IMG/VR virus record: IMGVR_UViG_3300008050_000034
Direction: 5' to 3' (one strand)
From: an uncultured virus (IMG/VR IMGVR_UViG_3300008050_000034)
Taxonomy: Duplodnaviria; Heunggongvirae; Uroviricota; Caudoviricetes
Length of the DNA: 20,000 nt
Below are positions 2 through 16,923 of this stretch, one piece after another (the stretch's first letter is position 1; each line of letters opens with the position of its first letter). The notes below the pieces were generated by a model. It was not told the DNA's origin and made no database searches. It was given only the letters and a program-made list of their open reading frames with translations. Made by a program: the position numbers and the translations under genes.

Positions 2-1918
2 GATGGAGGAGGAAACAGAGGAATCACTGTCTCCGGGCCGGCGCAAGACGCGGCTGGAGCAGTTCGCACTTCTAGTAATCACGCCTTTGACTGGGCAGAC
101 CACGCCCCGGGAGCGCCCTTTAGCTACAGAGTGGTCTGGGATGACTCCGGCCACACTAATAAAGTCTACGTACTGGTTACAGACGAGAGTACCTCGGAAG
201 AGACTCTTCTCTGGGAAGAGTCGATCGGCTCCATGGGAACTCTGCTGGCGAGCGCCCGTATGGGCTCATACTATTCAGAGGCCTCCCCTAATAGCGTGAC
301 GGGGGTTGTAGGAATAGACTCCGGGCAGATGGGAGACTTCATAGAGGTCCATGGCGTTAACGTAGAGACTTTTGGAGTTCCTCTCCTCTCCTCAGGCTAC
401 GGAACAGTCTCATCTCTGGTAGAGAGAACCACCTCAGACTCTACTGTAGTCGCAGGCTACGAGGATACGGTTGCCTGGGACCGGAGCCAAGTAGAGAACA
501 AGGTTACGGATCAGGAGACTTACTTTCAGATAGAGCAGAGTGACACAGCTACAACAGGTAACACTTCAATCGGCTGGCAAGAGACGCACTTATCGTCGGA
601 GTCGTTTCTTCTTCTGTTCCAGGGGTCTGTACGATCTTCTCTACATGAGGGGTCCTTCAGTACGGGGGCAGGACTAGACATCCGAGACGGGACCCAGGTC
701 TGCTCTCTGAGATTCCTAGACGACTTCGACTCAGAGTACATAGGGGTCCTAAACGGGTCGAATAGAGACACAATTGCAGACTTTGAGTCCTCTACCTTGG
801 GGTGGTCAGACTGCACTCCCGAGCTTCTGCTGATGGGCTCAGGGGATTACGCCGGAAGCTCGTTTCTACATGTGTACACTAGCCGAGATGATGATATCGA
901 TCCCGGCCTTATGGATAAGGTAGCTCCCTTAATAGAGGTCTCTACCGGATACACGGTCTCTGACGGAGTTTACAACGTAGATGACGATTCGGACCCTAGA
1001 GTAGATATAGGGTTTGTAGACACGGCAGAGACTTTGCTCCCCTACTCCGGGACGATGACGATCAGTAAGTTCATCCTCCTTCCGAAGTGTACGTTTTACT
1101 ACCCCTATCAGGCCGTCACAGAGCCTGAGGCATACGTGGATAGTCCTTGGGCACTCACAAATAGCTCTTCTTTCGGGGGAATGTATACGACGGTCCTGAC
1201 GGCAGATGGCGCTACTCGATCCACTCTACTCATATCTCCTACGACGTACGACCAGTATTGCTACTACTCTCTGCTGTTCTCCGACTCGGAGTATGTAGCG
1301 GGCGAGACAGGAGTCACCGTCCTGGCGAAGTTGCGTGTGAATACCTGGTGGGATCAGTTCGGAGTATCGGAGTCGGTACGAATCCCAATCTCTCCAGTGA
1401 TTGCGATAGACACAGGAGACGACCTGTTTATGCAGATGCAGTTCGTACGGTCTGAATCAGGAGAGAGCTTTGTATACTTCTCTCAAGACGCACAAGACTA
1501 CTTGGAGGTCCTTAATCAGACGGAATTAGGGGCTAAGATATCTGCGCCAGTAGACTTCACAGAGACCCACGCATACCAGGTGTCTTACAAGCCAGGTGCG
1601 CATATTCGTCTCTATTTAGATTACTCGGATACCCCTTCCATTGACATTCCTTGGGAGGATAACGATGTAGTCAGTCGGCAGAGCCAGAACTCAAACCTGC
1701 TCTCTTCGACCGCAAGTGTTGCGTTTGGGGCAATCGCAGAAGCCAATGTTACCGATAGCCATCCTGGGGCCATTGGTCTGGATATTGAGCTCGTAGCAGT
1801 CTCCCTCGGCAGTGGATTTGACTTCACATGTAACCTAGCTCTCGAACAAGATGACCTAGAAGACAAGGTCTACGGAGCACAGGCTAACGTCCTTGTAGAC
1901 GTCACGGATATGGACTGA
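2..1918 (+). CDS. Large acidic virion structural protein, 5'-truncated by the window edge; possible LamG/concanavalin-like C-terminal domain
   Basis: The frame is open from position 2 (DGGGNRGITVSG...), so the GTG at 131 is probably not the true start. The protein is rich in S/T/D/E/G and beta-type sequence. VDFTETHAYQVSYKPGAHIRLYLD resembles LamG-type strands. It overlaps the next gene via TGATG. Confidence 0.6.
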   Translation, partial: DGGGNRGITVSGPAQDAAGAVRTSSNHAFDWADHAPGAPFSYRVVWDDSGHTNKVYVLVTDESTSEETLLWEESIGSMGTLLASARMGSYYSEASPNSVTGVVGIDSGQMGDFIEVHGVNVETFGVPLLSSGYGTVSSLVERTTSDSTVVAGYEDTVAWDRSQVENKVTDQETYFQIEQSDTATTGNTSIGWQETHLSSESFLLLFQGSVRSSLHEGSFSTGAGLDIRDGTQVCSLRFLDDFDSEYIGVLNGSNRDTIADFESSTLGWSDCTPELLLMGSGDYAGSSFLHVYTSRDDDIDPGLMDKVAPLIEVSTGYTVSDGVYNVDDDSDPRVDIGFVDTAETLLPYSGTMTISKFILLPKCTFYYPYQAVTEPEAYVDSPWALTNSSSFGGMYTTVLTADGATRSTLLISPTTYDQYCYYSLLFSDSEYVAGETGVTVLAKLRVNTWWDQFGVSESVRIPISPVIAIDTGDDLFMQMQFVRSESGESFVYFSQDAQDYLEVLNQTELGAKISAPVDFTETHAYQVSYKPGAHIRLYLDYSDTPSIDIPWEDNDVVSRQSQNSNLLSSTASVAFGAIAEANVTDSHPGAIGLDIELVAVSLGSGFDFTCNLALEQDDLEDKVYGAQANVLVDVTDMD

Positions 1919-4900
1919 TGCCTACTAGACACATACAGACCCATAGATTCGCAGTTGACGAGTTCAAGGCTCGCCCTGAGGCGAAGATTGTCCCGGAGGA
2001 GGCCACCAGTATCTTGGGGGCATCAATCACTTTCAGCGCAGCAGCGTCTACTGTAGAGGAAGAAAGTGGGGAAGGCCTTACCTATGAGTGGGGCTTATCT
2101 GCTCCGGACGGGTCAGCACTACCGGGGGTGACGCTGGTTGAGGATGACGGCTCGGTAGTTAGGATCGATGGAGACGTTACAGGTACCTATATCCTGACGC
2201 TTAAGGTGTATAACGGAGGAGTAGCAAGTGATGCCGTTACTGCGGCAGCATTCTTCTCCCCAGTCATTGTTCCTGCCGTAAAGAGACTGGCCTCCGATGG
2301 CCGTTTCATGTTCCGAGTGCTTTCTAACTTCTGGTCACTTGTAAACGACAAAGAAGTATTTCCCGTACTGTGGTCTTCCTACTCTCAGGCAGTCGCTTCG
2401 GACTTACTCCAGGCTTTGCAAATCGACAGAGCCAAGTCCATTAGGACGATTCAGCCGCTGTACCAGAAGAGATGGATTGCATATAAGCCCGGCCTGGACA
2501 TAGATCCGGCCCAAACAACGATGATCCTAGGGAATCATCAGAGCGGGGGCGGAGCATTTACGGGGGATATCACATTCGTAGACGCCGGCATCTTAGTGTC
2601 TCCGACAGAGTTTGTCCTATTGACTGCGACTACCTCCAAGGCAGTGGGGTCCACCCTTACCTTGTTTGAAGGGGACAATATTGGAGAGTACCTAATCAAT
2701 CGGCTCAACTCGTCTGGAGATGGGTACATAGTATCTTCGTCTGATCCGTTCCCCAACTATGCCGGCGACATCGTAGTCTCTGGCTCTACTTTGGTATATC
2801 CCTCTACGCTGTCTAGTCTGGTGTACTCAACTACTGTTGACTTTACTGCAGCCAATGTCGAAGCAGGAGACGTACTTCGAATCGACGAGGGAGGGAACAC
2901 CGGCTACTACACTATTTCAAAAGTAGGAACTGCAGACGGCCTCTCCTCCGACTTCTACCTGGAGTTGGAGACTTCTCCAGTCTCTACGGCCTCGGACATC
3001 AAGTTCACCGTCTTTAGTGCTGTGCGGGCGAGTTACCTCAAGGACGACAATGCCTTAACAAATACAGTTTATATTCCTCAGGACGAGGCCGACCTAGACG
3101 CATACTCCCTCACCGCCCTGTCCTCAACAGGTGGTGAGATTAAGTCTAATTTTGAGATATCAGTCGTACCTCACCACGTTATTGAATCTTCCCTGGGGGC
3201 TGAGATCTCCATCAAGACGGGGGCTCGAGCAGGTACGACAGCAACCATCGCGGACTTTAATGAGTCCATGACGGGATTCATTGTATCGGTCGATCTAGGG
3301 AGTGATTCTCTGCCAGAGGAAGTCTCTTACGAGATCACTATTAACTCTGACGTCTCTAATCGTCTTCTGATCCTAGATGGAGAAGCCCATAGGATAGCGG
3401 GATACGAGCTCCTAGAGGGACTCCCATCTGTAGAAGAGGGCGGGCGTGGGAATCTGTGGGCCGTCATCTTAGAGGATTCGACTGCCCCCTCGAAGAGGGA
3501 AGGCATTGAGTGGCGAATTGGGTCTACTGTTACTTCGGATGAGTTTGAGGACTTCGAGGCCTACGGGGTCCGGGATGGGGACTTGCTGGAGCTACAAGTA
3601 TTTCGGCCCGATGTGGACGCTACCGGCACGCTATACGCAAGGATCACTGGTGCCTCCGAGAATGAGTTCTCTTTTGAGATAGGAACAGATGATCTGGTCT
3701 TCGGAGTACCGGGCAATGCCACGGTGTTTGGGGAGCCGTCTGCCAAGACCCTAGTGACCTTCAGTGAAGACTTGTCGGTGCCCACAGTTACAGAGTCTTC
3801 TGTGACCTCGGATCCCATCTTTACCTCTACCGCTATCGATATCAGGTCTTTCGTCTACTCCACTTCCTTCACGGCCCAGTTCTTTAATATCCCCATAGAG
3901 AGCACTACTAGGCTGAACATTGATTCTTATTTCGATATTCAGTTGAAGCCCAATAGGATCATCCGTAATTCGAGAGTGGCTCTGGACCCGGAAAGGGAGT
4001 ACGAGGACTCTCCCGTATATTCTATCCCGGCCCTATACGAGTATATCTCTCCAGAGCAAGTATCTAAGCTAGACACGGGAGAGTACCAGGTAGCGACCGC
4101 AGATATGTTTCTCTTGAGTAGAGAGACAGAGCCTGTTGGTCTTGTAGAAAATGGGGACTATACCGTAGCTAGAACTGAGCTCTCCGGAGCTGCGGGAGGG
4201 ACGTCTCCGGGGGCAGCCTCTATCTTTGTTGGGGACACCGATCTAGTAGCAAATGATGTTCGTCCGGGAGACGTGATAGTCCTTGAGTCAGGGATGAGTC
4301 AGGGATCCTATCCGATCTCTGCCATTATATCCTCGAACAGCCTACGAGTAGGCGGGAGAGATGTGGACGCCAGTCTGCCAATAGCAGATGAGGCGGGAAT
4401 TATATACAGGATTGAGCGCAGAGTAGACGGGAACTTTATCCGGTTTATGCGAGAGTTCACTCCCAAGACTCCAGCCCCGGAGACCCTTTGGGCCCCTCTA
4501 ACGCTCATAGATAACTTCAAGTACATCGAAGACAACTTCGGAGTCTTGGTAGGAGTAACTAAGGCGGAACTGGATGAGTTCGGGACTACCCAGGTCTCCT
4601 TTAAGGCCGCTATATCCGGACTCATGTATGCCTGGTCCCGGGGACCGACATTCCGATCGGCGGAGATCGGTGCCCATATTCTCTTGGATCTTCCTGTTAC
4701 GGAGATGCGTGGAGAGATCCTAGAAATTGACCATGAGTATTCCGATGGAAAGGGGCGGGTTCTTCTAGAGGATGTAACCGCAGATGGAATAGGAAAAGGC
4801 ATCTACCGGACTTATCTCTTTACTAGAGATGACCAATACAACGTAGAGCAGTTTAATGGACTAGGGATAAACCCAAGTACGGGTGCACAATTCCAGGAAG

Positions 4901-7122
4901 GAGATGTAGTCGAAAGGTACATCCCTCTGTCCAATAGTGTGGTCATCAGTGACAGAATAAAGGACCCGTTCTGGTGGAATGCCTATGCAGAAGTTCCAGG
5001 GTCTGATGAGCTGCAGAAGTACCATACCTGGCAGGCAGAGTTTGATCTCAAGGCTGTAGACTCTCGCGATGTCCCCCTTGCGGCGGACTTCCTGATGAAG
5101 ATCCGCCCGATCTACACGAAGCCTAAGATTGTCGGAGTACTGGCACTACTGGATGAAGTAATTGTAGAAGACGACTTCTATCTGGACCTAGATCTGTTTC
5201 TCTACGACGACCCCGCATTTAGTCGAGAATCTGCCCACATGGTGGATTCGATGAATGACAGCGGAGCCAGTACTCGAATTTTGGACATGAGCTCCTACGG
5301 CACTCGTACCTTCTTCCGTGGAGACGATCTGTCGGTGGAGGCTCTAGATGAGCAAACTGAGGTCGTTGGGATCGGAGCACTCAGTACTACTACATTCGAG
5401 GCCACCCTGTCGGATGCCGGCTACGAGGGGTACCACAGCGTAAGTTGGGTGCACTCTGGTGGAGACTTTGTAGCTTCCGACGAAGGAGGAATCTTCGCTT
5501 CCGCTGACGACGTGTCCATGTCAGGGACGGTGGATTACCTCACGGGAGAGATTACTCTAGATCTGGGATCTTCCATTCCAGACGTAGATACTGAGATAAC
5601 GATCACCTACCTACCGGCAGCAAAAGTGGTCTCTGAGCGTGGAGGTTTCGTTAAAGGGACCGAAATGGACGGGAAGTATGAGCTTCCGTACATCAACTCA
5701 TACTTCCAAGACCCTGTAGAAGTTCTAACTGAAGAGGGAGTTCGGGAGGGAGATGTCCTTTTCGTAACCACAGGAAGGAACCGAGGCAGGTTCGTTATTT
5801 CTTCTGTGATTTCAGACACAGAGCTGAGAATTCTAGAATACGCAGGTGCCCCTCCCAGGGGAGTGCCAATTACTCATATCCGTAGTGATGAGAATGCCGG
5901 CTTTCATATCCAGCGAAGGCAGGCACACGTCATTATGGGCGGAGAGGGACTGACCACTACCGCAGGAAGTAACCTCGTCCAGTTGGAAGGAGGGACATTC
6001 AGATCTTCCGGAGTGACGACTCAAGACGTCCTGCGGATCAGCCACACTACTGGAGAACAGGAAGTGGCGGATATTGCAGAGCTAGGCGAGTACGATCCTG
6101 TTTCTCTGACCTTTGGAGAAGATGTAGAGACAAAACTGACCCTGGTGAGTCCCTTGACGGTAACGGACGAGGGAGCCTCGTTTGAGATCCTCCGCTATGC
6201 ATTGAACGAGAACCCTGTGCTCACGGGAGAGGGAGATGTCAGTGCGGGAGGAAACTACATAGACGTTAATGAGGACATCTCTGTAGAGCCGGTCTTCCCC
6301 GGAGACCGCCTACTAGCGGTCGATGGTGATGACTCCGGGAAGTACTTCGAAGTCATCGGAGTCTCTCCCTACGAGGAGTTTACAGCGGGCAACACCCGTA
6401 TCTTCGTAGAGAGGCCCTTTTCCTCCTTTGTGGACCCTATTCTGTTCCAGGTAGTACATCGTTCGTTCGAAGAGGACGAAGAAGATAGTGACTATCGACT
6501 CGAGCGGCTGCATGCATACGATGCTGTCGACATCGATATCTACAGGCCAGTAACTACGGTCCTGGCTTCTACTGACTTTGTATTGAGTGATGATGAGGGG
6601 ACCCCGATGCCTCTCGCGATAGCTACGCACGGCTCCGGGACAGACCTCGCTACCCTGGGAGTGGAGATAGGAATGTGGCTGGAAGTCGAAGTGGTCGATG
6701 ATGGAGGGATCCCGGCTGAGACGACCAGTACCTCTCACGGCATTTACGAAATCGTCGACCTCATAAACGCCCCATCAGATAATGACACCGTAGTAGTGTC
6801 TAGCTACTTCCCAGGAGTGATAGGATCGTGGTCAGGAAGTGCCCCAGTGACGGAGATTTCTCCGTGTAGGGTGCTTACCGCAGACCCCAACTTTCAAGTT
6901 ACGGGAGATACTGTTACTTTAGTAAGCCCTGTACTAGACTCCTCAGCAGGAGCCACGACCTTGGAAGCAATTGGGGTCCGGCCCGGGGATCAGATTGAGA
7001 TAGAGTCATTTGATTCCCCGATTACGATTATTTCCGTCTCCGGGTCTACTCTCACTCTGGTATTAGATACTGGTCTGGCAGAGGCTAAAACAGGTAGAAT
7101 CTTCCGGCGAGAGAGACCATGA
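1918..7122 (+). CDS. 1734-aa baseplate wedge-like structural protein with an N-terminal PKD/Ig-like domain
   Basis: N-terminal PKD-like motif (ITFSAAAS...LTYEW...GTYILTLKVYNG). Helical segments FRVLSNFWSLVNDKEVF..W and FKAAISGLMYAWSRGPT resemble baseplate wedge proteins of large phages. About ten degenerate VxxGDxLxIxxGxNxGxYxI repeats. Lies upstream of collar and fibre genes. Confidence 0.6.
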   Translation: MPTRHIQTHRFAVDEFKARPEAKIVPEEATSILGASITFSAAASTVEEESGEGLTYEWGLSAPDGSALPGVTLVEDDGSVVRIDGDVTGTYILTLKVYNGGVASDAVTAAAFFSPVIVPAVKRLASDGRFMFRVLSNFWSLVNDKEVFPVLWSSYSQAVASDLLQALQIDRAKSIRTIQPLYQKRWIAYKPGLDIDPAQTTMILGNHQSGGGAFTGDITFVDAGILVSPTEFVLLTATTSKAVGSTLTLFEGDNIGEYLINRLNSSGDGYIVSSSDPFPNYAGDIVVSGSTLVYPSTLSSLVYSTTVDFTAANVEAGDVLRIDEGGNTGYYTISKVGTADGLSSDFYLELETSPVSTASDIKFTVFSAVRASYLKDDNALTNTVYIPQDEADLDAYSLTALSSTGGEIKSNFEISVVPHHVIESSLGAEISIKTGARAGTTATIADFNESMTGFIVSVDLGSDSLPEEVSYEITINSDVSNRLLILDGEAHRIAGYELLEGLPSVEEGGRGNLWAVILEDSTAPSKREGIEWRIGSTVTSDEFEDFEAYGVRDGDLLELQVFRPDVDATGTLYARITGASENEFSFEIGTDDLVFGVPGNATVFGEPSAKTLVTFSEDLSVPTVTESSVTSDPIFTSTAIDIRSFVYSTSFTAQFFNIPIESTTRLNIDSYFDIQLKPNRIIRNSRVALDPEREYEDSPVYSIPALYEYISPEQVSKLDTGEYQVATADMFLLSRETEPVGLVENGDYTVARTELSGAAGGTSPGAASIFVGDTDLVANDVRPGDVIVLESGMSQGSYPISAIISSNSLRVGGRDVDASLPIADEAGIIYRIERRVDGNFIRFMREFTPKTPAPETLWAPLTLIDNFKYIEDNFGVLVGVTKAELDEFGTTQVSFKAAISGLMYAWSRGPTFRSAEIGAHILLDLPVTEMRGEILEIDHEYSDGKGRVLLEDVTADGIGKGIYRTYLFTRDDQYNVEQFNGLGINPSTGAQFQEGDVVERYIPLSNSVVISDRIKDPFWWNAYAEVPGSDELQKYHTWQAEFDLKAVDSRDVPLAADFLMKIRPIYTKPKIVGVLALLDEVIVEDDFYLDLDLFLYDDPAFSRESAHMVDSMNDSGASTRILDMSSYGTRTFFRGDDLSVEALDEQTEVVGIGALSTTTFEATLSDAGYEGYHSVSWVHSGGDFVASDEGGIFASADDVSMSGTVDYLTGEITLDLGSSIPDVDTEITITYLPAAKVVSERGGFVKGTEMDGKYELPYINSYFQDPVEVLTEEGVREGDVLFVTTGRNRGRFVISSVISDTELRILEYAGAPPRGVPITHIRSDENAGFHIQRRQAHVIMGGEGLTTTAGSNLVQLEGGTFRSSGVTTQDVLRISHTTGEQEVADIAELGEYDPVSLTFGEDVETKLTLVSPLTVTDEGASFEILRYALNENPVLTGEGDVSAGGNYIDVNEDISVEPVFPGDRLLAVDGDDSGKYFEVIGVSPYEEFTAGNTRIFVERPFSSFVDPILFQVVHRSFEEDEEDSDYRLERLHAYDAVDIDIYRPVTTVLASTDFVLSDDEGTPMPLAIATHGSGTDLATLGVEIGMWLEVEVVDDGGIPAETTSTSHGIYEIVDLINAPSDNDTVVVSSYFPGVIGSWSGSAPVTEISPCRVLTADPNFQVTGDTVTLVSPVLDSSAGATTLEAIGVRPGDQIEIESFDSPITIISVSGSTLTLVLDTGLAEAKTGRIFRRERP

Positions 7123-7304: not shown

Positions 7305-7918
7305 TTCCTATACATAAACTCTTGCGATGGTTCAGTCCCGACGTAGTAGAAGACCACAAGTCTGCTGCAGCGATTCAGGGGTTCTTCCAGGCTGAGACCA
7401 GAGAAAGAGGAAAGATCGTTTCCAGGACAGAAGGAAACAACATTTGGACGCTCACAGGTAGAGAGTACCTGGCCGAGCTAATTGCGCTCCGGGCCAGCAG
7501 CCCAAGGGCGACATTTAGAGACGATAGGGTTGCGTACATTGGTCTCGGGTCCGGGTCTCAGGCAGAGGTGGCCAACATCAGCTCACTAGTGGACCCTATT
7601 CCTTACTCTCCCGGAGAGTTTTTAGCTCCTACTGCCACTCCCGCAACCTTCCCTGCCTCCGCTACTACTTCTACCAAGACTGCCGTTAGATTCATTCGTG
7701 AGTACGGCCTGTCGGAGATTAGCCTGGGGTATGATGTAGTCTTGACGGAGGCTGGCCTTTTCACCGATGGAAACCCCGACGATGACTGGGCACTTACGGC
7801 CCTGACAGGATTGGATTCATCAGGAGATAGAGCTCCCGTGGCTTACAAGACTTACGAACCCATTACTAAGACTACTCAGTTTACCCTTCGAGTAATCTGG
7901 GAGGTCCGATTCATATGA
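7301..7918 (+). CDS. Tail-collar-fibre/baseplate-associated protein (205 aa)
   Basis: Pattern NIWTLTGREYLA...YIGLGSG...LTEAGLF...AYKTYEPITKT..LRVIWEVRF is typical of phage tail-collar fibre (DUF3751-like) proteins. AGGAG SD upstream. Directly precedes the giant fibre gene. Confidence 0.7.
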   Translation: MIPIHKLLRWFSPDVVEDHKSAAAIQGFFQAETRERGKIVSRTEGNNIWTLTGREYLAELIALRASSPRATFRDDRVAYIGLGSGSQAEVANISSLVDPIPYSPGEFLAPTATPATFPASATTSTKTAVRFIREYGLSEISLGYDVVLTEAGLFTDGNPDDDWALTALTGLDSSGDRAPVAYKTYEPITKTTQFTLRVIWEVRFI

Positions 7919-10900
7919 GTCAATTTAAACGCCGACCATTTATGGCGGGACATACTGACGTATTCATCCTGTCACAGCCGTATATCTCCGGAACAGAGCA
8001 CATCAACTCTGACGGAGAGCTGGATAGTATCGTTGCGCTTACTGCGCCATTTACTCTCGAGCTGTCTGTAGAGACGGAAGCAGGTAATGCTGACGTCCAG
8101 TGGACGGATGCAGATACCCTGACTTTGGCCCAGATGGTCGAAGATATCAACGGCTCTGCCCTCTCCTCCCTCGTCCTGGCCGAAGACTTTGAAGGATGCC
8201 TCCGACTATCGAGCTTGGGCTCCGGATACGTCTCCTCTGCCGGGTCTAATGCCTACATAAAAATCGTTCCTAATTCTTCAGGGGCTACGTTCATTGATGC
8301 GGCTGAGCTGTTTGGGTTTCCTCGAGACCCCCACCCTCACTCAATAGTTACCGCAGGAGACCTAGCCTCTGCCCCAGTAAGGCCCCTTACTCAGGTCAAC
8401 CGACCAGGCGTCTCCTACATTGCTCGAGGAGAGGATAGGGTCTCTCAAAACTTCAACCGAGCGCTTCATCAGCTAGGAATAAATGACGATAGCCTGAACA
8501 CGCGGCTGAAGACCAGAGTACCTATCCCTACCGTTCTTGATCTGGGAGAGGCATCGTCTCGACTAATAGTCAATGCAGATGGGGAGATTACGGCAGTAAA
8601 TCTGTCCCCAAACTTGGGAGACGACCTAGACAGCGTTCTCGAGAATAGGGTCTTTGTTGGCGGAGAGCTCAACAGTGACACAACGCTACACACCCTATCC
8701 CAGTATTTTGCAGTTCTAGACGGCAACGACAATGAGATCGTGGCAGATCACCTTCCTATTCGTGTTGGTGCCGCCACTAGAGGTGCTCCACTAGTTGCCG
8801 TTCCTTACTACCAGGACGAGGAATCTACCCCGACAAGCTCAGGTAGTGGACCTATTGCCGACACTGTTTACATTTCCGGAGGTGGAACTGACGGAGGAAA
8901 TGTACTTGGCGTCCAAAGAGAGAAGCAGGCCATAGTTACCATTGATGAGATCAGGGACCACTGTGTCTTGATCTGTAATGGTGCCCTATTCGAGACCGAA
9001 GATGTGCAGCCGGGAGACATCGCTCAGATATCTGGCTCTACTCTCAATGCCCCCATAAACCATGATGGGGCTTACATCGTAGAGAGAGTTATCTCGGAGA
9101 CGGAACTCGAGGTACGTCCTCGTGACCACGCCCAAGTACATCTCCTGAATGAGGGCTCTGCGGGCCTAGGCGGAGTACAGGTCGGAACTGATGGAGAGTT
9201 CGAAGAGAACGTCTTCTTGATGTTCTACCCTCCAATCCCCAGATTCCCTCCTGCCCGACCAGGCCCCACGGCAGATCCGGCAACCAACGCCTCCACCATC
9301 ATTCCTGGAATTCTTAGGCTAGTGGTCGGTATCGAGGGATACCTAGGAGAGGTTCCTCCTACGTTCTTAATGCACTCCACAATCAACTCTGCGGAGGAAG
9401 TAGACGCCTTCACTAGTAGACGTATCTGGAGAAGACTATCCTTTGACGGCATCTACCAAGGCCAGGGATATGACTATAGAGGTACCGAGCTAGGAGGTGG
9501 GGCCGAGGGTCGAGTGACGCATGGAGCGATTACTTTTGCTCTAGACTCTCATAACCAGGGAACTCCTCTCAACACTCTAGATAAGAGTGGCTCGGGTGAG
9601 CTCATAAAGCGGGAGAGAGACGTTGTCCTAGAGATTGCTACGCCAGGCAGTGTAATCGATCAGGACATTGGAAAGATCATCCTCCTTACTCAGCAGGGCG
9701 GAGGCACCGACATCTTCATTGAGGAGCCTTTCCTCATTTCTGAGTTCCTGAGCTACGACTCGGTCCGACTCAGTCCAATGATCGAGAGGAAGAGCTTCTG
9801 GAACTCCGTTGGAGTCTCTAGCCTGTCTGTGGACTATCAGATTCTACAGGAAGGGCTTGCTGCTATTCAGGCAGCTATGACAATCGTAGCCCCTCAGTAC
9901 AACGAGGCGGGAAACGATGCCCCACGAATAGGCCACACATTCGTCCGAACGAGGGAGAACCGTACCGGGTCGGAGCTACTGGCAGGAAAGCTAGAGACCC
10001 CCGGAACCAGTCTTCTGCACATAGAGAGAATCCAGAGTCTACGGGCAGGATATGGCGGAACGGACTGGGTGGCTGCAGAGACAGTAGAGATCCGGAACCT
10101 AGGAACAGGCGACCCCTATGTCTCTTTCTACGACAAGGATGACGATACTTCGCAGATTGAGCCACAGCACAACCCAAGTATCTTTGCTAGAGACCATAAC
10201 CCCGACAGTAGTGGCTCTAATCGCCTAGATAACTCTATCGGCCACTCAATAGTACGTGTTTTTCATGGCCCAAATGCGGGATTCTACTCTATCGTCTTGG
10301 ACGACTCTGTTGGGACTAAGCTCCAGAGACTTTCCCTTACGGGAGAAGGAGAGGATTACAGCGCCGTGGCTCTTCCGGCAGGAATGAGCCACCAGTATGG
10401 CTGCCTTTACAATATCATTTGCTCCATAGGTAGCCTATCTGCGCAAGTAGAGACCCCGTTAGATGAGAGTACATCTGTTGAGGTAGGGATCACCGCCTTC
10501 GCGGATGCCGCTACCGCCACTGCCGTTGATCAGAAGGCCCGCGCAATCCAAGCCCATTGGCTCGGAGACGGTACCGCTTTCTTCGTCAGGGCGAATGATC
10601 CTGGGTGGATCGGATACAACCTAAACACGTCTTCGGCAGGACCGGGAGGTACTGAGGCGGCGTCGGGTTGGGCAATTGACATTGAGGTCTTTAACCCCGC
10701 TAACGGCATTTGGGTGAAGTCTGCAGGCGACATCACAGACAGTAGTGAGAAGAAGAGGAGAGCCAAGGGCATCGAAGTATATGTCGAGAGCAACGAGGCT
10801 GATCCTGAGCACCAGGACCTAGACGAGGGAAGTACTCCAATACTATCGAAGCCTCAAGGGTTTGGCCTCAAAGTCACGGTAGGTCCTTCTGGGAAGGTAC

Positions 10901-13900
10901 AGGATACTCGGGAGTTTCCGTGGCACGGAAATGACCCTGCAATTATTGCTAGGACCGGAGTCACTGAGGACGGGAGCGAGAGTACCTGGGGTGTCTCGGA
11001 CATCACTATCGACAAGCATCTGATTAACGATGATAAGACCCTGCATCCGGTCACGTCTACGGTAGTTGTCCAAGACCGCAGGGGAGGCTTCTACGACTCA
11101 TCTGGAGCCTCTGTTTCTCCAGATAGAGACGATCCTGTAGAGACTATTGAGCTCGGGTACAAGGCCGGAGCTATGACGGTCTCTGGGTCCGTGAATATCC
11201 ATACATGGTCCACTCTGATATCAGATAGTGGGATTGGATCTTCAGTATCCGTCTACCCCACCTATGGACCCTCTGCTACGCAGGAAGGGGAGATTTCAGT
11301 ACACTACGGAGAGATGTCCGGGTTCGGCATGGCCTCGGACGATGGAGTCCTCCTGGGACTTAGTTATCACACTTCCGTGCCCCATGCCGCGCATCTGGGC
11401 TGGCCCCGCATAGACCTAGGACATGACGCGAATTGCGAGAGCGGCAGGAGCATCTCAGTTACGGGGCAAGACTACGAGACATTCAAGTGCAAGCATCAGT
11501 TCATCATGCAGATACCAGGGGACCAAGAGCATCTCACTGCCGATGAGATAGCGTCTCTTGTGGGGCGCGTCGTCTCTATCGAAGTCAGCGGAGAGAGTGA
11601 TGATTTCACCCACTGGAGAATAGAAGGTGTCCGGGCAGGCGCAGCAGAAGACCACGATAATAACTGGATCTACTTAGCACTACGGAACGATACCTCTGAG
11701 TCGGACCCCTCATCGGCCCCAAACCGGTCGATCATAAAGGCATCTAGGTGGGTCAAAGGATGTGTCGATGTCGCCGAGTGGCAATTATGGGGCACAGGAA
11801 ACCACCACAGTGCGCAATCGCTACCGCTGTTTGTTGCGCGTAGGGACCCGGTTGAAAGAGATACTGCCAAATACAGCGCAGATCAGTTCCCAACTGGAGA
11901 TCCAGATCCGAACAATTCCCTGATCTACCCGGCGGGATTTACTGCCTACTCTCAGGCATCAAGGTTCCACCTTGGGATGCAGAGATTTACCCAGAGCGCC
12001 GGAGATAACTCTCTAGAGGGTGGGCTTCTATGGGGAGGCGGAGACCTCTTCCTGTCCAGTGGAATACTCTCCGATGCGTGGGACAACGATCCCACGGACG
12101 AGAACTTTTGGAGTGAGTGGGTCGCGGGCGGACGCTCCGTAGATTTAACAGACAACGTATCTTCGTGGTTCCAGCCAGCCTCTCCTTTCCCGAATGAGTG
12201 GCTATGGGACACCACCACCGCCCCTCAATGGGCTGTTGGAGGGGATGATCCGGACGGCTACTACGCAGTTAGAGACCATGATGGCATCGATAGCGCAGAC
12301 CAGCTTGTATATCCGGAGTGGCGCGAAGTTTGGGGCCAGGCACAGCAGGAACTACCTGATCAAACTCAGGATCACATGTGGCCAGGCACTTCCAAAGTTA
12401 GAATGCCTGGAGAGAGTCTAAGAGTTCGGGACTTCGTTGTTGAGGTAATCGACCCCAACTACGTTGAGCCTAACTCAGACTACTCCTACGCACTAATGGG
12501 CGGCGGATCAATCGATGCCCAGGCAAGAGCCAGCGTGTTCTGGTCCCCGACTTGGGGAGGCTCCATCGCCTTCACCCAGCCGAGCTATGAGGGGTCTGGG
12601 AGCAGCGATCCAACTGTCTACCGCGTTACCAAGAAGATAGGTAGCCACTTCACGCGGCATCACTTGGACCTCGAGGTCCATATAATGTTGGCAGGTCAGT
12701 GGAAGACCACCGACCCTGCCAACTCTAAGCACTCTTTCCGGCTCTGTTTGAGGAACAGTCGAGGGGAGATCTTGGCGGAGGACATTGTCCAGGGCGACTC
12801 TGACCGAGAGCCCTATGACTCAGACGACGGCGCAGGCAATGGGTGGCGTCTGTATGAGCTCATAGGTAATTTCCGATCAGACTCTTTCCTCACTCTGGGC
12901 GAAGGTACCGTACAGGATAGTCTGGACGTTCCTTGGAACAAGTCCCCGGATCTTAGCCAGTTCTTGGCCGAAACAGACGTTCTGCAGCAAGACCTATTTG
13001 TCAGTCTCGAATTAGCCGTGACTGGAGACAATTATCCCACTGACGAGGGCTTTTTCTTAACTCAGGGTAGCGGCACGGACGGGTATGTGCCCCAGCCGTA
13101 CGCAGCTCATCTCCTGAGATTCGAGACCTCTAATAAAACGCAGCCTGTAACCATGTCCTCGCCTATAGATGTGCAAGGGCAGGTGAGAGCTAATACGTAC
13201 CGGTACTTGACCCCAAGACGAGAGACTCAGACCATAGGTCCAGAGTCTGCTAACTTCCTTACGGGAACCCAGTATTCTTGGCTAAATACTTCGGTCACTT
13301 CGGCATCCAGTCAGAACGCCGGGAAAAGCGCAGCTGGGGCAGGAGAAGGGCCGACCCATGGCTATGTCGCTTCGAAGGGTACAGCCTCCATTGTCGGCAC
13401 TTACCACAGTGGGAGTAAAAAGCTCCAATCGGACACAGACCTCTCGAACGGGTACGGTGGGATATTCCATCCTTGGCTGCATGTCGGAGGAAGCTCGTAC
13501 TATGGGGGGTCCACAAATACGCCCATAAGCGAGACGGAGTACGCCCACTGGCGGAGGCCGTACGTAGAGTGGTCTAAGTGTTTTCAGAGAGGGCCAGACT
13601 GTCTTCGGATCGAGTTCGATAGGGGACAGAACGATCCTCTTTGGTACGCCCTAAGGAACGCCTCATGGAAAACAACGCAGATGCTGGGGGAGAAGTATTT
13701 CTGGATGGACAGGGGGGACGACTCTGGAGGGCACTTCGTGGCGGGCTCGAGCTCTACCTACCAGCCCCAGCCCCAGTCTTATACCTGTCCCGGTCCTGCA
13801 GGGTTTATAGTTCCTTTGGATCCTCCACACGGAAGTAGAATAGTAGAGGTCGCCTACCACGTCTCTATTGCCCCCAATGTATGGCTCCAAAATGGACGCG

Positions 13901-14967
13901 GAATAGGGAACTACTCTGCGTTCGAGGATAAGTGGACCACTCTCGATATATCGGGGGGAGCGCCCTCGGACATCGGAAATCCTAATGATGTAAAGGTATT
14001 TGCCGACTGGAACTGTTTTCTGGAGGTACCTACTCTTACCGAAGATTCTGGAGATGGAGAGTCACCTCCCGATGCGAGCTTTGGAGGAAATATCATTTCT
14101 CCGGTTGCAGACCATTGGAGGGAGAGGTCCGGCTTTCGAGTGGAGCTTTGGAGGAAGCCAGTAGCTTTGGGCTTTGATCACGCTAGTTGGGAGAACTTTA
14201 GTTGGAACCAGGGAGGAGCAGAGTTGATCCACTCCTGGCGAGAGGAGCTATGGGACTCGGATGGTGGGGAGTACAAAGTAGACCCTTATTCTGGCTTCAA
14301 GGATAATGATTTTGACGCAGAAAAGATCCCTCACGAGACGCATTCTGGGAAGCTGTATGGCGGCAGCGGCGACCAGGTCCACTACCCCAATGAGTTCCAT
14401 ATCTCGAGAACCAAGTCTCTGGACCCGGAGGCAGACCTAAATCGCTACGATTTCTCGTCGACGGACAACAGGGTTTATATGGTAGATAGAAGAGCCTATA
14501 CCTACTTCTTGGTCATTCGTGCTTGGATGGGCGGGCCCCGTGTAAATACTCGGCACTGCTTTCACCCAAGTATGTCTGAGACCTGGGATTCGTATGAGGT
14601 AGAGGGATACACGTTCAATCCCCATCCTTGGCACCGCGATGGGTTGGCCGACTCGGAGTTCACCCATAAGGCCGACACCTCTAAGGCAGTGGCCCCGGAC
14701 TACCCCTACCCTACAGCCTGGCCCTCAAGGTCCCACAGAGTGAATCCCCCATGGGGTCCGTTCACTTTCGGAGGAGGAACAGGTATCGGGAGTGCCGCGT
14801 TTTACGGGACATGGTGTGGAGTGGCGATCAACGGAGAGGATAGATTAGATGGGTACCCGATGGGTACCGGGGATTCGAACGACCTCGCTGTTCTGTTCCC
14901 AGAGCAGTTCCCAGGTTCTTTCTCTTTCCGAGGTGCGAGGGTAGGGTGGCTAAAAGACACGTTGTAG
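7915..14967 (+). CDS. 2350-aa tail fibre / receptor-binding-like virion protein
   Basis: GGAGGT SD and ATGA overlap. The N-proximal RGEDRVSQNFNRALHQLGINDDSL resembles fibre attachment motifs. Shares the VxPGD...GxYxV repeat with the 1734-aa protein. The C-terminal region has FIVPLDPPHGSRIVEV, resembling fibre-tip beta-sandwich domains. Confidence 0.6.
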   Translation: MSQFKRRPFMAGHTDVFILSQPYISGTEHINSDGELDSIVALTAPFTLELSVETEAGNADVQWTDADTLTLAQMVEDINGSALSSLVLAEDFEGCLRLSSLGSGYVSSAGSNAYIKIVPNSSGATFIDAAELFGFPRDPHPHSIVTAGDLASAPVRPLTQVNRPGVSYIARGEDRVSQNFNRALHQLGINDDSLNTRLKTRVPIPTVLDLGEASSRLIVNADGEITAVNLSPNLGDDLDSVLENRVFVGGELNSDTTLHTLSQYFAVLDGNDNEIVADHLPIRVGAATRGAPLVAVPYYQDEESTPTSSGSGPIADTVYISGGGTDGGNVLGVQREKQAIVTIDEIRDHCVLICNGALFETEDVQPGDIAQISGSTLNAPINHDGAYIVERVISETELEVRPRDHAQVHLLNEGSAGLGGVQVGTDGEFEENVFLMFYPPIPRFPPARPGPTADPATNASTIIPGILRLVVGIEGYLGEVPPTFLMHSTINSAEEVDAFTSRRIWRRLSFDGIYQGQGYDYRGTELGGGAEGRVTHGAITFALDSHNQGTPLNTLDKSGSGELIKRERDVVLEIATPGSVIDQDIGKIILLTQQGGGTDIFIEEPFLISEFLSYDSVRLSPMIERKSFWNSVGVSSLSVDYQILQEGLAAIQAAMTIVAPQYNEAGNDAPRIGHTFVRTRENRTGSELLAGKLETPGTSLLHIERIQSLRAGYGGTDWVAAETVEIRNLGTGDPYVSFYDKDDDTSQIEPQHNPSIFARDHNPDSSGSNRLDNSIGHSIVRVFHGPNAGFYSIVLDDSVGTKLQRLSLTGEGEDYSAVALPAGMSHQYGCLYNIICSIGSLSAQVETPLDESTSVEVGITAFADAATATAVDQKARAIQAHWLGDGTAFFVRANDPGWIGYNLNTSSAGPGGTEAASGWAIDIEVFNPANGIWVKSAGDITDSSEKKRRAKGIEVYVESNEADPEHQDLDEGSTPILSKPQGFGLKVTVGPSGKVQDTREFPWHGNDPAIIARTGVTEDGSESTWGVSDITIDKHLINDDKTLHPVTSTVVVQDRRGGFYDSSGASVSPDRDDPVETIELGYKAGAMTVSGSVNIHTWSTLISDSGIGSSVSVYPTYGPSATQEGEISVHYGEMSGFGMASDDGVLLGLSYHTSVPHAAHLGWPRIDLGHDANCESGRSISVTGQDYETFKCKHQFIMQIPGDQEHLTADEIASLVGRVVSIEVSGESDDFTHWRIEGVRAGAAEDHDNNWIYLALRNDTSESDPSSAPNRSIIKASRWVKGCVDVAEWQLWGTGNHHSAQSLPLFVARRDPVERDTAKYSADQFPTGDPDPNNSLIYPAGFTAYSQASRFHLGMQRFTQSAGDNSLEGGLLWGGGDLFLSSGILSDAWDNDPTDENFWSEWVAGGRSVDLTDNVSSWFQPASPFPNEWLWDTTTAPQWAVGGDDPDGYYAVRDHDGIDSADQLVYPEWREVWGQAQQELPDQTQDHMWPGTSKVRMPGESLRVRDFVVEVIDPNYVEPNSDYSYALMGGGSIDAQARASVFWSPTWGGSIAFTQPSYEGSGSSDPTVYRVTKKIGSHFTRHHLDLEVHIMLAGQWKTTDPANSKHSFRLCLRNSRGEILAEDIVQGDSDREPYDSDDGAGNGWRLYELIGNFRSDSFLTLGEGTVQDSLDVPWNKSPDLSQFLAETDVLQQDLFVSLELAVTGDNYPTDEGFFLTQGSGTDGYVPQPYAAHLLRFETSNKTQPVTMSSPIDVQGQVRANTYRYLTPRRETQTIGPESANFLTGTQYSWLNTSVTSASSQNAGKSAAGAGEGPTHGYVASKGTASIVGTYHSGSKKLQSDTDLSNGYGGIFHPWLHVGGSSYYGGSTNTPISETEYAHWRRPYVEWSKCFQRGPDCLRIEFDRGQNDPLWYALRNASWKTTQMLGEKYFWMDRGDDSGGHFVAGSSSTYQPQPQSYTCPGPAGFIVPLDPPHGSRIVEVAYHVSIAPNVWLQNGRGIGNYSAFEDKWTTLDISGGAPSDIGNPNDVKVFADWNCFLEVPTLTEDSGDGESPPDASFGGNIISPVADHWRERSGFRVELWRKPVALGFDHASWENFSWNQGGAELIHSWREELWDSDGGEYKVDPYSGFKDNDFDAEKIPHETHSGKLYGGSGDQVHYPNEFHISRTKSLDPEADLNRYDFSSTDNRVYMVDRRAYTYFLVIRAWMGGPRVNTRHCFHPSMSETWDSYEVEGYTFNPHPWHRDGLADSEFTHKADTSKAVAPDYPYPTAWPSRSHRVNPPWGPFTFGGGTGIGSAAFYGTWCGVAINGEDRLDGYPMGTGDSNDLAVLFPEQFPGSFSFRGARVGWLKDTL

Positions 14968-15128
14968 CCAGCCTGGATACTATCCGGCTCAAGTGGGACT
15001 TGAGGACTCGGCCTTCTTCTAAGAAGACGGCCGAGACCCCTACGATCTCTACTGCATCTCGAATTGTGGAGGTCGGAAAGAACCAGCTAAAAAGGCGACG
15101 CTCCAAGGGGAAGCGCCGCCAATCTTAG
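14946..15128 (+). CDS. Possible small basic protein (60 aa)
   Basis: GTG start with GAGG upstream, and it fills the gap between the convergent blocks. However, its basic tail is encoded by the antisense of the - strand terminator, so it may be spurious. Confidence 0.3.
   Translation: MAKRHVVASLDTIRLKWDLRTRPSSKKTAETPTISTASRIVEVGKNQLKRRRSKGKRRQS
15089..15120 (-). terminator. Rho-independent terminator of the - strand operon
   Basis: On the - strand: GGCGGCGCTTC-CCCTT-GGAGCGTCGCC-TTTTT, an 11-bp GC-rich stem with two G-U pairs followed by U5. It starts 4 nt after the TAA at 15127-15125. Confidence 0.85.
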
Positions 15129-15301
15129 ACGGTAAGTCTCAGGAGAAACGCCTTAGCATCTTCTATGGTCTTTGCGTCCAGCAGGTATCCACAGTCTTCA
15201 GCCAGGCGACGAAGATCTCTAAGGCTCATGCCCTCGAGACCTTCCTCTGAGATTTCCTCTATTCCCAGCTGACTTCCGTCAAGCTGGTGATTTCGTTTCC
15301 C
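15125..15301 (-). CDS. -1 frame extension of the H1-like gene (HeH/Rho-N-like), or an independent 34-aa ORF
   Basis: Open frame GK-RNHQLDGSQLGIEEISEEGLEGMSLRDLRRLAEDCGYLLDAKTIEDAKAFLLRLTV*. LEGMSLRDLRRLAEDCG fits the LxxMxxxELRxLAxxxG helix pattern. The only ATG lies inside that motif. The frame ends right before the terminator. Confidence 0.6.
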   Translation of the reverse strand, partial: GKRNHQLDGSQLGIEEISEEGLEGMSLRDLRRLAEDCGYLLDAKTIEDAKAFLLRLTV

Positions 15302-16182
15302 GGGTCTACATCCTGATTGTAGGTCCAGGCTAGGTAGTCTGAGATAGAGGACAGCACCTCTTCAACCTCAGTCATCTTGTCGGTCAGCGCACTGACCGCC
15401 GTGTCTTGGTCGAAGACCTTCGTTCCGATGGCCTCGACCATATCGGAGATCTTCTTCAGAGACTCTACGTCCACAGGGGCTCCCTCGGTAGCCGTAGTAG
15501 TCGGAGCAGCTGTCCTACGGGTGGGCTTCCGCTTCGCAGGAGTTTTCTTTCCAGCTGCCTCTTTCTTAGGCGCGGCCTTCTTAGGCGCGGCCTTCTTAGG
15601 GGCTGCCTTAGCTGGAGTATCTTTGGTCGCCGCAGTAGTGGCCTTGGTATCTGCCTTCACGGGCACCTTGGCTTTCGTCTTCTCTTTCGCAAAGGTCTTC
15701 TTCTCTTTGGAAGGAGCCTTTGCCTTCTTCGCAGGCTTAGTCTCTACTGCCTGGTTACTCGACCCATTAGCTTTTACCTGCCCAATCAGGTCCTTTAGGG
15801 CCTCATTGTCCATCTCTGCGATGTTGGGGTAGATGGGAGCTCCAGACGTGTCTGTCATTCCGATGATCTTGTTCACCAGGGATTCAGCTGACAGCTGGAA
15901 AGAACGACCATTTCTCTCGATCGCGCCCAACTCGATAGCCAAGCTCCTGAGGAATTTTCTGTGTCCGACGATTTGTAAATCACTCATTGATAGTTTCCTA
16001 TTCTTTTTTTTGTTTTTGATTATCGCTGCGCCGCCAAACTCGTCGACGACGCGCATCCTTGCTAGAGTCACGCCGGGGTGCGCATCTTCGAAGATGCCAC
16101 ATCCTTCCCCGAATTCTATCATTCTAGTGGTAGCCTCTGAACACTTTGGGAGTCTCTTGCAGCTTATGCAAGGGCCTCTCAT
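15259..16182 (-). CDS. Histone-H1-like K/A/P-rich DNA-binding protein with a Cys-rich N-terminus and an acidic coiled-coil C-terminus; likely second start at 15987
   Basis: Central PAKKAKAP...PAKAAPKKAAPKKAAPKKE...PAKRKP tract, N-terminal CxxC-x5-C-x13-C, and C-terminal heptads (VSALTDKMTEVEEVLSSI). AAGGA SD plus ATGA overlap at 16182, and a second A-rich AGGA SD before ATG 15987. Confidence 0.75.
   Translation of the reverse strand: MRGPCISCKRLPKCSEATTRMIEFGEGCGIFEDAHPGVTLARMRVVDEFGGAAIIKNKKKNRKLSMSDLQIVGHRKFLRSLAIELGAIERNGRSFQLSAESLVNKIIGMTDTSGAPIYPNIAEMDNEALKDLIGQVKANGSSNQAVETKPAKKAKAPSKEKKTFAKEKTKAKVPVKADTKATTAATKDTPAKAAPKKAAPKKAAPKKEAAGKKTPAKRKPTRRTAAPTTTATEGAPVDVESLKKISDMVEAIGTKVFDQDTAVSALTDKMTEVEEVLSSISDYLAWTYNQDVDPGNEITSLTEVSWE
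15265..15314 (-). promoter_or_regulatory. Candidate programmed -1 ribosomal frameshift signal
   Basis: AGGA (15314-15311), 9 nt, G_GGA_AAC (15301-15295, correctly phased), 7-nt spacer GAAATCA, then hairpin CCAGCTTGAC-GGAA-GTCAGCTGG (15287-15265). Confidence 0.6.
15563..15607. repeat. 3 x 15-bp tandem repeat encoding AAPKK
   Basis: TTCTTAGGCGCGGCC twice exactly, plus TTCTTAGGGGCTGCC. Confidence 0.9.
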
Positions 16183-16478
16183 ATAACGTCGTCCTTAAAG
16201 GCCAACCAGCACCTCAGCACTATCCCTTCAGGGCACCCAAATCTAGTACATTTTCCCGTGCACCCAGGTAGTTGGGTACGCAGTCTCCTGAAGTTTCTCT
16301 GTATGTGTCTCTCCATCGCCTGTCTGTGCTCCTCTAGAGGGCACGGATCGGTGGAGTCTATGTCTCCGTCAAGTAGGGCAGCAAGCTCCTCTCGGTTAGT
16401 AAGTCTCGCAACGTTCCCGAGTCCCAGCTCCCTGGCCAGTTCTACCAGCTCTGTTCTATTTATATTCCTGTATGACAT
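16179..16478 (-). CDS. Rho-N/HeH-like nucleic-acid-binding domain fused to a Cys-rich domain (99 aa)
   Basis: NRTELVELARELGLGNVARLTNREELAALL matches the Rho N-terminal/HeH pattern. The C-terminal half has C...CTGKCTRFGC...C (5 Cys). Confidence 0.7.
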   Translation of the reverse strand: MSYRNINRTELVELARELGLGNVARLTNREELAALLDGDIDSTDPCPLEEHRQAMERHIQRNFRRLRTQLPGCTGKCTRFGCPEGIVLRCWLAFKDDVI

Positions 16479-16923
16479 CTGGAACCCCGTACTGGAGAGG
16501 ATCTACTTCAAGTAGCCTCATTACAACACCACAGTCATCTCCCATCCTCTTGGTTAGGTTGACCTCAAAGAAGAGGCAGTCGTCTATGTCTCCTAGAACT
16601 TCGACTAGACAGTCCTCTAACAACTTACGTCGATTGCCTACGTCAAAACGCTTATACAGTGTTTTGGCTCGTTTTTTAAACCACCCCTTGTTGATCACAG
16701 TTTCGAATGTAAAGTCCAAATTAAGCGCGTAAACGCTTGTTTCAGTATGGCCGGCAACGAAATTGTTTATCTCTACGACGTGGTTGGCTCGTACAAAGTC
16801 TGTGAATAGGCGGCGATAACCTATGGCTTCCTTGGTGTAGACCATCCCTCCCTGCCAACGATGCACTCTGATGTGATTCTCTGTTGGAGGGAGGTGAGGG
16901 AAGTGGATCGTTAGGGACCTCAT
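16456..16923 (-). CDS. rusA: RusA-like Holliday junction resolvase
   Basis: N-terminal LPPTEN, then RFDVGNRRKLLEDCL...DIDDC, matching the RusA pattern PPSxN / DxDNxxKxxxDxL...DD. GAGGT SD. Confidence 0.75.
   Translation of the reverse strand: MRSLTIHFPHLPPTENHIRVHRWQGGMVYTKEAIGYRRLFTDFVRANHVVEINNFVAGHTETSVYALNLDFTFETVINKGWFKKRAKTLYKRFDVGNRRKLLEDCLVEVLGDIDDCLFFEVNLTKRMGDDCGVVMRLLEVDPLQYGVPDVIQEYK

Follow-up and report, generated by a model that had tools for sequence, protein, structure and literature searches.

The 20,000-nucleotide (nt) stretch of DNA analysed here (the window) derives from an uncultured marine phage (IMG/VR record IMGVR_UViG_3300008050_000034) and carries, on its minus strand and within a recombination module, a gene of 307 amino acids (aa; 15259..16182). 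We consider it likely that this gene is translated with a programmed -1 frameshift at the slippery heptamer G_GGA_AAC (15301-15295) into two isoforms of 307 and 352 aa, the longer of which would be extended by a helix-extended-helix (HeH) domain. The original prediction had proposed such a frameshift, appending an HeH/Rho-N-like domain, and the related loci strongly support it by the conservation of the heptamer at synonymous sites, its replacement by C_CCA_AAG in one lineage, the joint loss of heptamer and tail, a tail reading frame without a start of its own, and a constant -1 phase. The positions predicted for the gene, the heptamer, an upstream AGGA, a hairpin, the -1 open reading frame (ORF) and a terminator were all correct.

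All features of the site lie on the minus strand. The ATG of the 307-aa gene overlaps the stop codon of an upstream 99-aa gene (ATGA), and its 3' end reads ...GAC CCG GGA AAC GAA ATC ACC AGC TTG ACG GAA GTC AGC TGG GAA TAG. Here, CC[G GGA AAC] (P294 G295 N296) contains the phased X_XXY_YYZ heptamer, overlapped by a second phased one, C_CCG_GGA (15304-15298); 11 codons lie between the AAC and the 0-frame stop TAG (15261-15259). The Shine-Dalgarno (SD)-like AGGA (15314-15311) is located 9 nt 5' of the heptamer, and a 7-nt spacer separates the heptamer from a first hairpin (CCAGCT(T)GAC-GGAA-GTCAGCTGG; 15287-15265) of 9 bp with one bulged T and a GGAA loop, showing a minimum free energy of -14.8 kcal/mol (z -3.8) that none of 200 shuffled sequences reached. 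The -1 frame opens 33 codons ahead of the 0-frame stop and extends 44 codons beyond it, ending at TAA (15127-15125). Read from the slip site (15301-15125), it encodes the linker GKRNHQLDGSQLG, which is dual-coded with the 0-frame C-terminal peptide, and then IEEISEEGLEG-MSLRDLRRLAEDCGYLLDAKTIEDAKAFLLRLTV, the putative HeH domain; the TAG is spanned by the -1-frame codon ATA (I14 of the tail), which opens a conserved hydrophobic-hydrophobic-Glu-hydrophobic segment. With 56 new codons after the slip, the longer product would comprise 296 + 56 = 352 aa. An intrinsic-terminator-like hairpin with a T run (15120-15089; stem 15120-15094 with 11 pairs, then TTTTT) begins 4 nt past the TAA, and a scan of 14800-16600 revealed no second terminator-like site on the minus strand, hence none between the TAG and 15120.

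In our model, most ribosomes would stay in frame through G_GGA_AAC and end at TAG 15259, releasing a 307-aa form that terminates in the conserved acidic/aromatic peptide NEITSLTEVSWE. In a minority, we infer, the tRNA-Gly (GGA, P site) and the tRNA-Asn (AAC, A site) slip one base back onto GGG_AAA; these ribosomes would then read CGA AAT CAC... and end at TAA 15125, yielding the 352-aa form (...DVDPGN-RNHQLDGSQLGIEE...) with the junction peptide ...DVDPGNRNHQLDG.... In this form, the last 11 residues would be exchanged for a short linker and a SAP/Rho-N-type HeH domain of about 45 residues. In the window, slipping is probably made more frequent by the 9-bp hairpin that follows the heptamer after 7 nt. 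Since both forms share a long C-terminal helix, they probably co-assemble, which would equip a set minority of subunits with a second HeH module.

A phased heptamer by itself is ordinary in the window: 18 were counted in the 6,496 codon positions of 11 long ORFs, including another G_GGA_AAC in a 2,350-aa gene. The AGGA is ordinary as well, with 27% of segments of the same size in the gene pairing equally well with the anti-SD sequence. Of the 18 heptamers, none gives access to a -1 frame extending past the stop of its gene, except for the overlapping pair at 15304/15301. As heptamer and AGGA are unremarkable alone, the case is decided by comparison with relatives. The same gene also holds a phased A_AAA_AAG within an eight-A run (16016-16003, minus strand; codons AAA AAA AAG), where the -1 frame closes after 3 codons and a shift would give an N-terminal fragment of about 60 aa; the residues encoded there vary among homologues, so that this site is probably due to chance.

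DNA and protein searches of a GenBank phage collection with the gene gave no match, and among viral, metagenome and genome contigs no relative was detected via the protein itself or a close alignment (A1). The first three protein homologues displayed an N-terminus with four Cys together with the 0-frame C-terminus ...GNEI(S/T)(S/A)L(T/S)(E/D)V(N/S)W(E/V). Homologues share the start of the window gene and C5, C8, C14, and C28; of the two starts considered in the original prediction, this N-terminal motif speaks for that of the 307-aa protein and against the internal one. The DNA of relatives was reached through neighbouring genes, with a scan for the UvsX-like recombinase recovering 25 syntenic loci and a scan with an alignment of the 99-aa gene recovering 46; another alignment (A2) returned only contigs already recovered and no new ones. 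The gene order in these loci, namely UvsX-like recombinase, resolvase-like gene, Cas4-like nuclease, a 187-aa gene, RusA-like gene, the 99-aa gene and the frameshift gene, recurs across related uncultured phage contigs. Of 82 sequences, 68 contained the N-terminal domain of the gene, and removing 10 that ran off before the stop and 21 identical duplicates left 37 distinct rows for comparison.

A homologous tail was found between the gene and the terminator in 31 of the 37 rows, and a 32nd (L042) is cut before the domain. The tail consensus consists of two hydrophobic residues, Glu, another hydrophobic residue and a few variable ones, followed by L..M(S/T)..EL...A...G..LD, a variable stretch and L..L.RL.V; a terminator equivalent to that of the window sits behind the tail stop in relatives. 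In 24 rows the tail lies in the -1 frame, in seven a downstream ORF in frame 0 directly follows an in-frame TGA (L040, L054, L057, L058, L059, L043, and the cut L042), and in one (L064) the tail is in the +1 frame; the remaining five (L001, L002, L044, L050, and L062) are tail-less, with the terminator following the 0-frame stop. A phased X_XXY_YYZ heptamer, counted in the last 30 codons and only where the -1 frame is open, was present in 15 of the 24 rows with a -1 tail versus 0 of the 13 others. Thirteen of these 15 rows make up the clade of the window, 12 of which carry G_GGA_AAC 13-14 codons before the stop. In L004, GGC CCA AAG provides C_CCA_AAG at most one codon from the same alignment position, encoding different amino acids and still slippery. 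In L019 and the nearly identical L060, G_GGA_AAC immediately precedes TGA, elsewhere in the protein, and in L019 a G+C-rich hairpin of 9 bp (-28.6 kcal/mol, z -4.2) lies 7 nt past the heptamer. The tail-less L050 reads CCT GGT GAC at the site, having lost all slippery features, and a -1-frame TGA falls within this site. In L061, a -1-frame TGA stands immediately 5' of GGG AAA, and the tail frame can thus be entered only at or after the heptamer.

Synonymous sites were compared in the 10 rows of the window's clade in which the heptamer position encodes Gly-Asn. The Gly codon is GGA in all of them, versus a fraction of 0.244 among the other Gly codons of the same genes (n = 205). The codon before it is CCG in five rows, GAG in three and TCG in two, encoding Pro, Glu, and Ser, respectively; G occupies its third position in all 10 rows, versus 0.338 overall. 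The conserved Ser and Leu located 5 and 6 codons 3' of the Gly are encoded by five and four different codons, indicating that synonymous sites are saturated. For about eight independent retentions, the naive products, uncorrected for phylogeny, amount to ~1e-5 for GGA and ~2e-4 for the third-base G. At the level of the sequences compared, the slippery sequence thus appears to be kept beyond the needs of the protein, pointing to selection on the nucleotides and not on the protein alone.

Several observations weigh against this interpretation. The heptamer expected in homologous loci is there in the 15 rows named above, but no canonical one was found in the other nine of the 24 rows with a -1 tail, which end with G GAC TGA (six rows), G GAT TGA, G GAA TAG or G GGG TAA; moreover, seven rows have the downstream ORF in frame 0 behind TGA and one has a +1 tail. 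Taken together, these rows indicate that the tail can be reached by other routes and leave room for an unrecognised common mechanism. Of the three-part architecture of dnaX and IS911 that had been invoked, the upstream stimulator did not hold up, the SD-like motif being above gene background in 2 of 11 rows and at background in the window. The hairpin is present and stable in the window, but its conservation could not be confirmed, as it beats shuffles in only 2 of the 13 clade rows, namely the window (0.010) and L061 (0.025); it is possibly a lineage-specific stimulator. Natural in-frame fusions, which the original prediction had suggested looking for, were not encountered: no longer, fused protein was found via the tail alignment, a negative that is weak evidence, and none was present among the homologues of a representative search. 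According to the available text of PMC5009743, a heptamer is weaker in E. coli when it ends with AAC than when it ends with AAG, which upholds a caveat already raised, though E. coli may not be the host. Finally, Met occupies the first HeH position in 16 of 25 rows, and internal initiation could therefore exist there additionally or instead.

The last point leads to the alternative that the tail is a separate gene starting at ATG 15229, perhaps by re-initiation 30 nt past the TAG, and encoding a free 34-aa HeH peptide (MSLRDL...), with the heptamer being incidental, which we regard as unlikely. The ATG does exist, with GGAAGG 10 nt upstream, the 34-aa ORF was predicted as a protein of its own by a gene caller (P0004), and the frame of the tail relative to the upstream gene is not constantly -1. 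The residue at the position of this ATG is M in 16, L in six, V in two, and K in one of the 25 rows, but its codon is GTA (L020), CTT (L004), AAG (L078) or CTG in at least seven lineages, and in L020/L052 the first ATG/GTG/TTG of the tail frame appears only 10 codons from its end. The -1 ORF of the window has no ATG/GTG/TTG 5' of ATG 15229, the sole canonical start of the tail frame. Moreover, conservation of the tail protein reaches about 11 residues 5' of the Met, across the 0-frame stop, which it overlaps in the window's clade (ATA GAG GAA = IEE). The distance between stop and domain takes ten values from 26 to 83 nt in 20 rows, all of them 2 mod 3, meaning that insertions and deletions in this stretch kept the frame. 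In the window, both the ATG (15229-15227) and its SD-like GGAAGG would be locked in a second hairpin (15247-15208; 14 bp in two runs, -24.5 kcal/mol, z -2.9, 3/200 shuffles), the former in the AUGA loop and the latter in the stem. The codon overlapping the 0-frame stop is CTG, TTG, ATA, GTA or CTA and never ATG or GTG, in contrast to the ATGA/GTGA overlaps at the gene's own start; re-initiation at this codon was rejected for the window's clade, where it is ATA, CTA or GTA in several rows. A separate gene would also leave unexplained the GGA and the third-base G, both kept in 10 of 10 rows, as well as the joint loss of heptamer and tail. Judging from these alignments, the tail does not appear to be a gene of its own.

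It is more improbable still that the tail is joined by recoding at another place, i.e., by a -1 slip on the last codons or the stop. This would accommodate the nine heptamer-less rows with their G GAC TGA, G GAT TGA, G GAA TAG or G GGG TAA ends, two of which (L015 and L065) open the -1 frame just two codons before the stop, so that any -1 slip in them must fall there, and the window itself likewise ends with G GAA TAG. Nevertheless, a stop-adjacent -1 slip is not established for such sequences, none being found in the available text of PMC5009743, and it would leave unexplained the conserved G_GGA_AAC 13 codons upstream and its replacement by C_CCA_AAG. An artefact or decay, with an assembly indel having split a single 350-aa gene or the tail being a dead remnant, is the most improbable of these explanations, even if sequencing errors most commonly show up as a one-base change of frame close to the end of a gene. 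A contig from a sequencing run of another study is identical over 15060-15311 without a gap, at low depth (2.4), and a contig from a third run covers 15086-15283, also at low depth; the exact match in an independent run, a check that had been asked of the sequence, makes an assembly indel at the site unlikely. The 0-frame stop is genuine, as all 16 family members among the 21 matches of an exhaustive representative search end 0-3 residues from the match end (the other five matches are repetitive coiled-coil proteins), so that independent assemblies show the same split and 0-frame C-terminus. The split is present in 13 distinct rows of the window's clade, and the tail protein is conserved in about 25 rows and predicted with confidence to fold. 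Two other candidates were rejected, namely transcriptional slippage, there being no homopolymer at the site, and read-through of the TAG in the window, where the 0-frame meets TGA after 10 further codons.

The tail itself was modelled by AlphaFold from a 25-row alignment with a mean predicted local distance difference test score (pLDDT) of 79, rising to 84-90 over residues 21-58, and with helices at 19-23, 27-36 and 46-56, the latter two being joined by a 9-residue connector. In an exhaustive structure alignment, the top rows were the Rho N-terminal domain 1a62_A (Z 4.8, root-mean-square deviation 1.8, 42 residues), followed by YqbF, the SAP-like domain of CDNF/MANF, the SAP domains of Hcc-1, Ku70, and PIAS1, and the LEM domain of emerin (Z 3.5-4.8); all these Z scores are below 5, a range commonly reached according to the aligner. 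Foldseek gave no match of the tail in the PDB at E <= 0.001, the ESM Atlas offered no usable match, and the tail missed the gathering score of Pfam Rho_N (PF07498) with 16.2 bits versus 24.9 (E 0.01). The predicted helix-extended-helix arrangement, the structural ranks and the weak Rho_N score together make an HeH/SAP-type domain the best-supported reading of the fold, in agreement with the HeH assignment of the 56-aa tail made beforehand. Based on the model, the tail would be closest to Rho-N and SAP domains and hence of a putative nucleic-acid-binding type. Like the SAP/HeH/LEM/Rho-N class, it has a predicted helix, extended loop and helix; it differs in a conserved extra short N-terminal helix or strand, in the Rho_N score below the cut-off and in Z scores below 5.

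From its N-terminus onwards, the carrier protein comprises a domain with four Cys, a segment resembling HeH, a disordered middle rich in A, P, and K, a long C-terminal helix (239-290), and the conserved C-terminal peptide EI(T/S)SL(T/S)EV(S/D)W. AlphaFold predicted two small N-terminal domains (pLDDT ~70-80), disorder over residues 142-235 (pLDDT < 50), and the long helix 239-290; a fold search with the full-length model returned generic coiled-coil rows only, which crowded out the N-terminal domains, so that these were barely probed. The gene matches no Pfam or PHROG family at the thresholds used. The label of a histone-H1-like protein for DNA compaction, given to it initially, is not supported, as the disordered middle, which carries a net charge of +21 in the window, reaches -24 in L065 and is net negative in 9 of 25 homologues; from these sequences, the K/A/P-rich middle does not seem to be a family trait. 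The 0-frame C-terminal peptide (E-I-x-S-L-x-E/D-V-x-W; window 15294-15262) is acidic, contains an invariant Trp and is kept even in tail-less relatives; it would be absent from the frameshift product in the window's clade. We take this peptide to resemble the acidic C-terminal tips by which phage single-strand-binding proteins recruit partners. Judging by its genomic context, the carrier may act in DNA recombination or replication.

Every database homologue of the carrier is the short form, and in a set of 5.8 billion proteins the only short homologue of the tail was the 34-aa ORF of the window itself. Among the rows with other layouts, the six that end with G GAC TGA (L015:13000-13010, L016-L018, L065, and L073) are divergent and share this end despite differing C-terminal peptides; it may represent an unrecognised stop-adjacent shift site or non-AUG (CTG) re-initiation. 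In L040 (1385-1612), L054 (1717-1944), L057 (2818-3045), and L059 (3775-4002), the frame-0 tail behind the TGA is 75 codons long and followed by a terminator. This clade displays a 4-bp GNRA hairpin, GGGC-GAAA-GCCC, 2 nt past the TGA, with a compensatory change to AGGC...GCCT in L054 and L057, and a GTG 21 codons past the TGA could serve as a start instead. In L043 (3652-3820), the frame-0 tail behind the TGA has 55 codons, and a 7-bp hairpin (-15.2 kcal/mol, z -3.1) lies 7 nt past the stop. The sequences of the frame-0 rows look like a UGA read-through layout. L064 (3664-3961), the sole +1 row, ends its gene with ...GAC TGG GGG CAG GGC TAA, in which a G5 run permits -2/+1 realignment; an assembly indel might also account for this layout.

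The mechanism proposed here for the window is of the known X_XXY_YYZ type; its novelty lies in the gene family, in the non-structural setting and in an HeH domain as cargo. In the g-t gene of the haloarchaeal virus HCTV-1, G_GGA_AAC has been reported as a -1 site, and E. coli ribosomes are highly prone to shift at C_CCA_AAG, as far as the available text of PMC5009743 goes. Like lambda G/GT (G_GGA_AAG) and HCTV-1, the window gene has a phased X_XXY_YYZ heptamer near the 3' end of a phage gene. According to the same portion of PMC5009743, G/GT and its relatives produce a C-terminally extended second product at low level and keep their layout despite low similarity, with the direction of the shift differing among phages, all of which resembles the present case. 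In contrast to G/GT, the window gene lies in a recombination/replication module (UvsX-like, Cas4-like, RusA-like) and not in a tail module, and adds an HeH domain of about 45 residues instead of a T domain, with no Pfam or PHROG likeness to G or T. A second parallel is provided by the immunoglobulin (Ig)-like domains of T3 10B, Lactobacillus phage A2 and Listeria phages, small mobile C-terminal domains which, from what the available text of PMC5009743 describes, are added via -1, via +1 or in frame; similarly, lineages differ in whether the HeH tail is encoded in frame -1, in +1, or behind TGA in frame 0. Here, however, the domain is HeH and not Ig, the carrier is non-structural, and no stop-less in-frame fusion was seen in any lineage compared. 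With dnaX tau/gamma (A_AAA_AAG, upstream SD, stem-loop), the window shares a heptamer and a 3' stem-loop at similar spacing as well as, presumably, two isoforms of a DNA-transaction protein with common N-terminal parts, the longer dnaX product being made by the shift in some bacteria (PMC5009743, available text); unlike in dnaX, the SD stimulator is unsupported, the stem-loop is not conserved, the heptamer ends with AAC, and there is no DnaX homology.

Some features of the neighbourhood should be mentioned as well. The upstream 99-aa gene (16478-16179, minus strand), coupled translationally to the frameshift gene (ATGA/GTGA), is the best-conserved marker of this gene pair; it has an HeH-like N-terminus with a weak Rho_N match (E 0.026) and an invariant Cys-rich C-terminal half (LPxCxGxC...GCP..V..CW). 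Compared as profiles, the tail and this HeH-like N-terminus showed no significant similarity (probability 4%). Two giant plus-strand ORFs, 1918-7122 (1,734 aa) and 7915-14967 (2,350 aa), converge on the frameshift gene; the former shows a weak tail-fibre match (E 1.2e-4), and both are otherwise without a family match. Directly 3' of the terminator T run, a (T)TTAGC motif (window 15093-15075, minus strand) was present in nearly every locus despite differing flanks, located between convergent gene blocks.

Annotated phage frameshifts are nearly all in tail-chaperone genes. Tail assembly chaperones accounted for 2,397 of the 2,476 joined genes in a survey of SEA-PHAGES genomes (PMC10885494, available text). 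The literature searched, which covered few subscription journals, did not describe either this gene family or an HeH domain appended by frameshifting. The site of the window would thus be a conserved recoding site in a non-structural gene beside recombinase, nuclease and resolvase genes, where it would set the ratio of protein with and without the extra HeH module. Gene callers miss such an extension; the tail of the window was called as an orphan 34-aa ORF. If the other layouts are real, the diversity of recoding routes leading to one module would be a further novelty, and since the same domain is reached via different recoding layouts by clade, including sites without a recognised slippery sequence, the family constitutes a natural experiment. 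More tentatively, the HeH tail module might only ever occur as a recoded extension, never as a plain fusion and never as a gene with its own start, the routes being -1 at G_GGA_AAC/C_CCA_AAG, UGA read-through with a small hairpin, a +1/-2 slip on G5, and a stop-adjacent -1 shift ('G GAC UGA'); we hold this generalisation to be possible rather than probable. If true, selection would have to favour strongly the presence of a long, sub-stoichiometric isoform of a non-structural protein of DNA transactions, and the stop-adjacent -1 shift might represent a new type of site.

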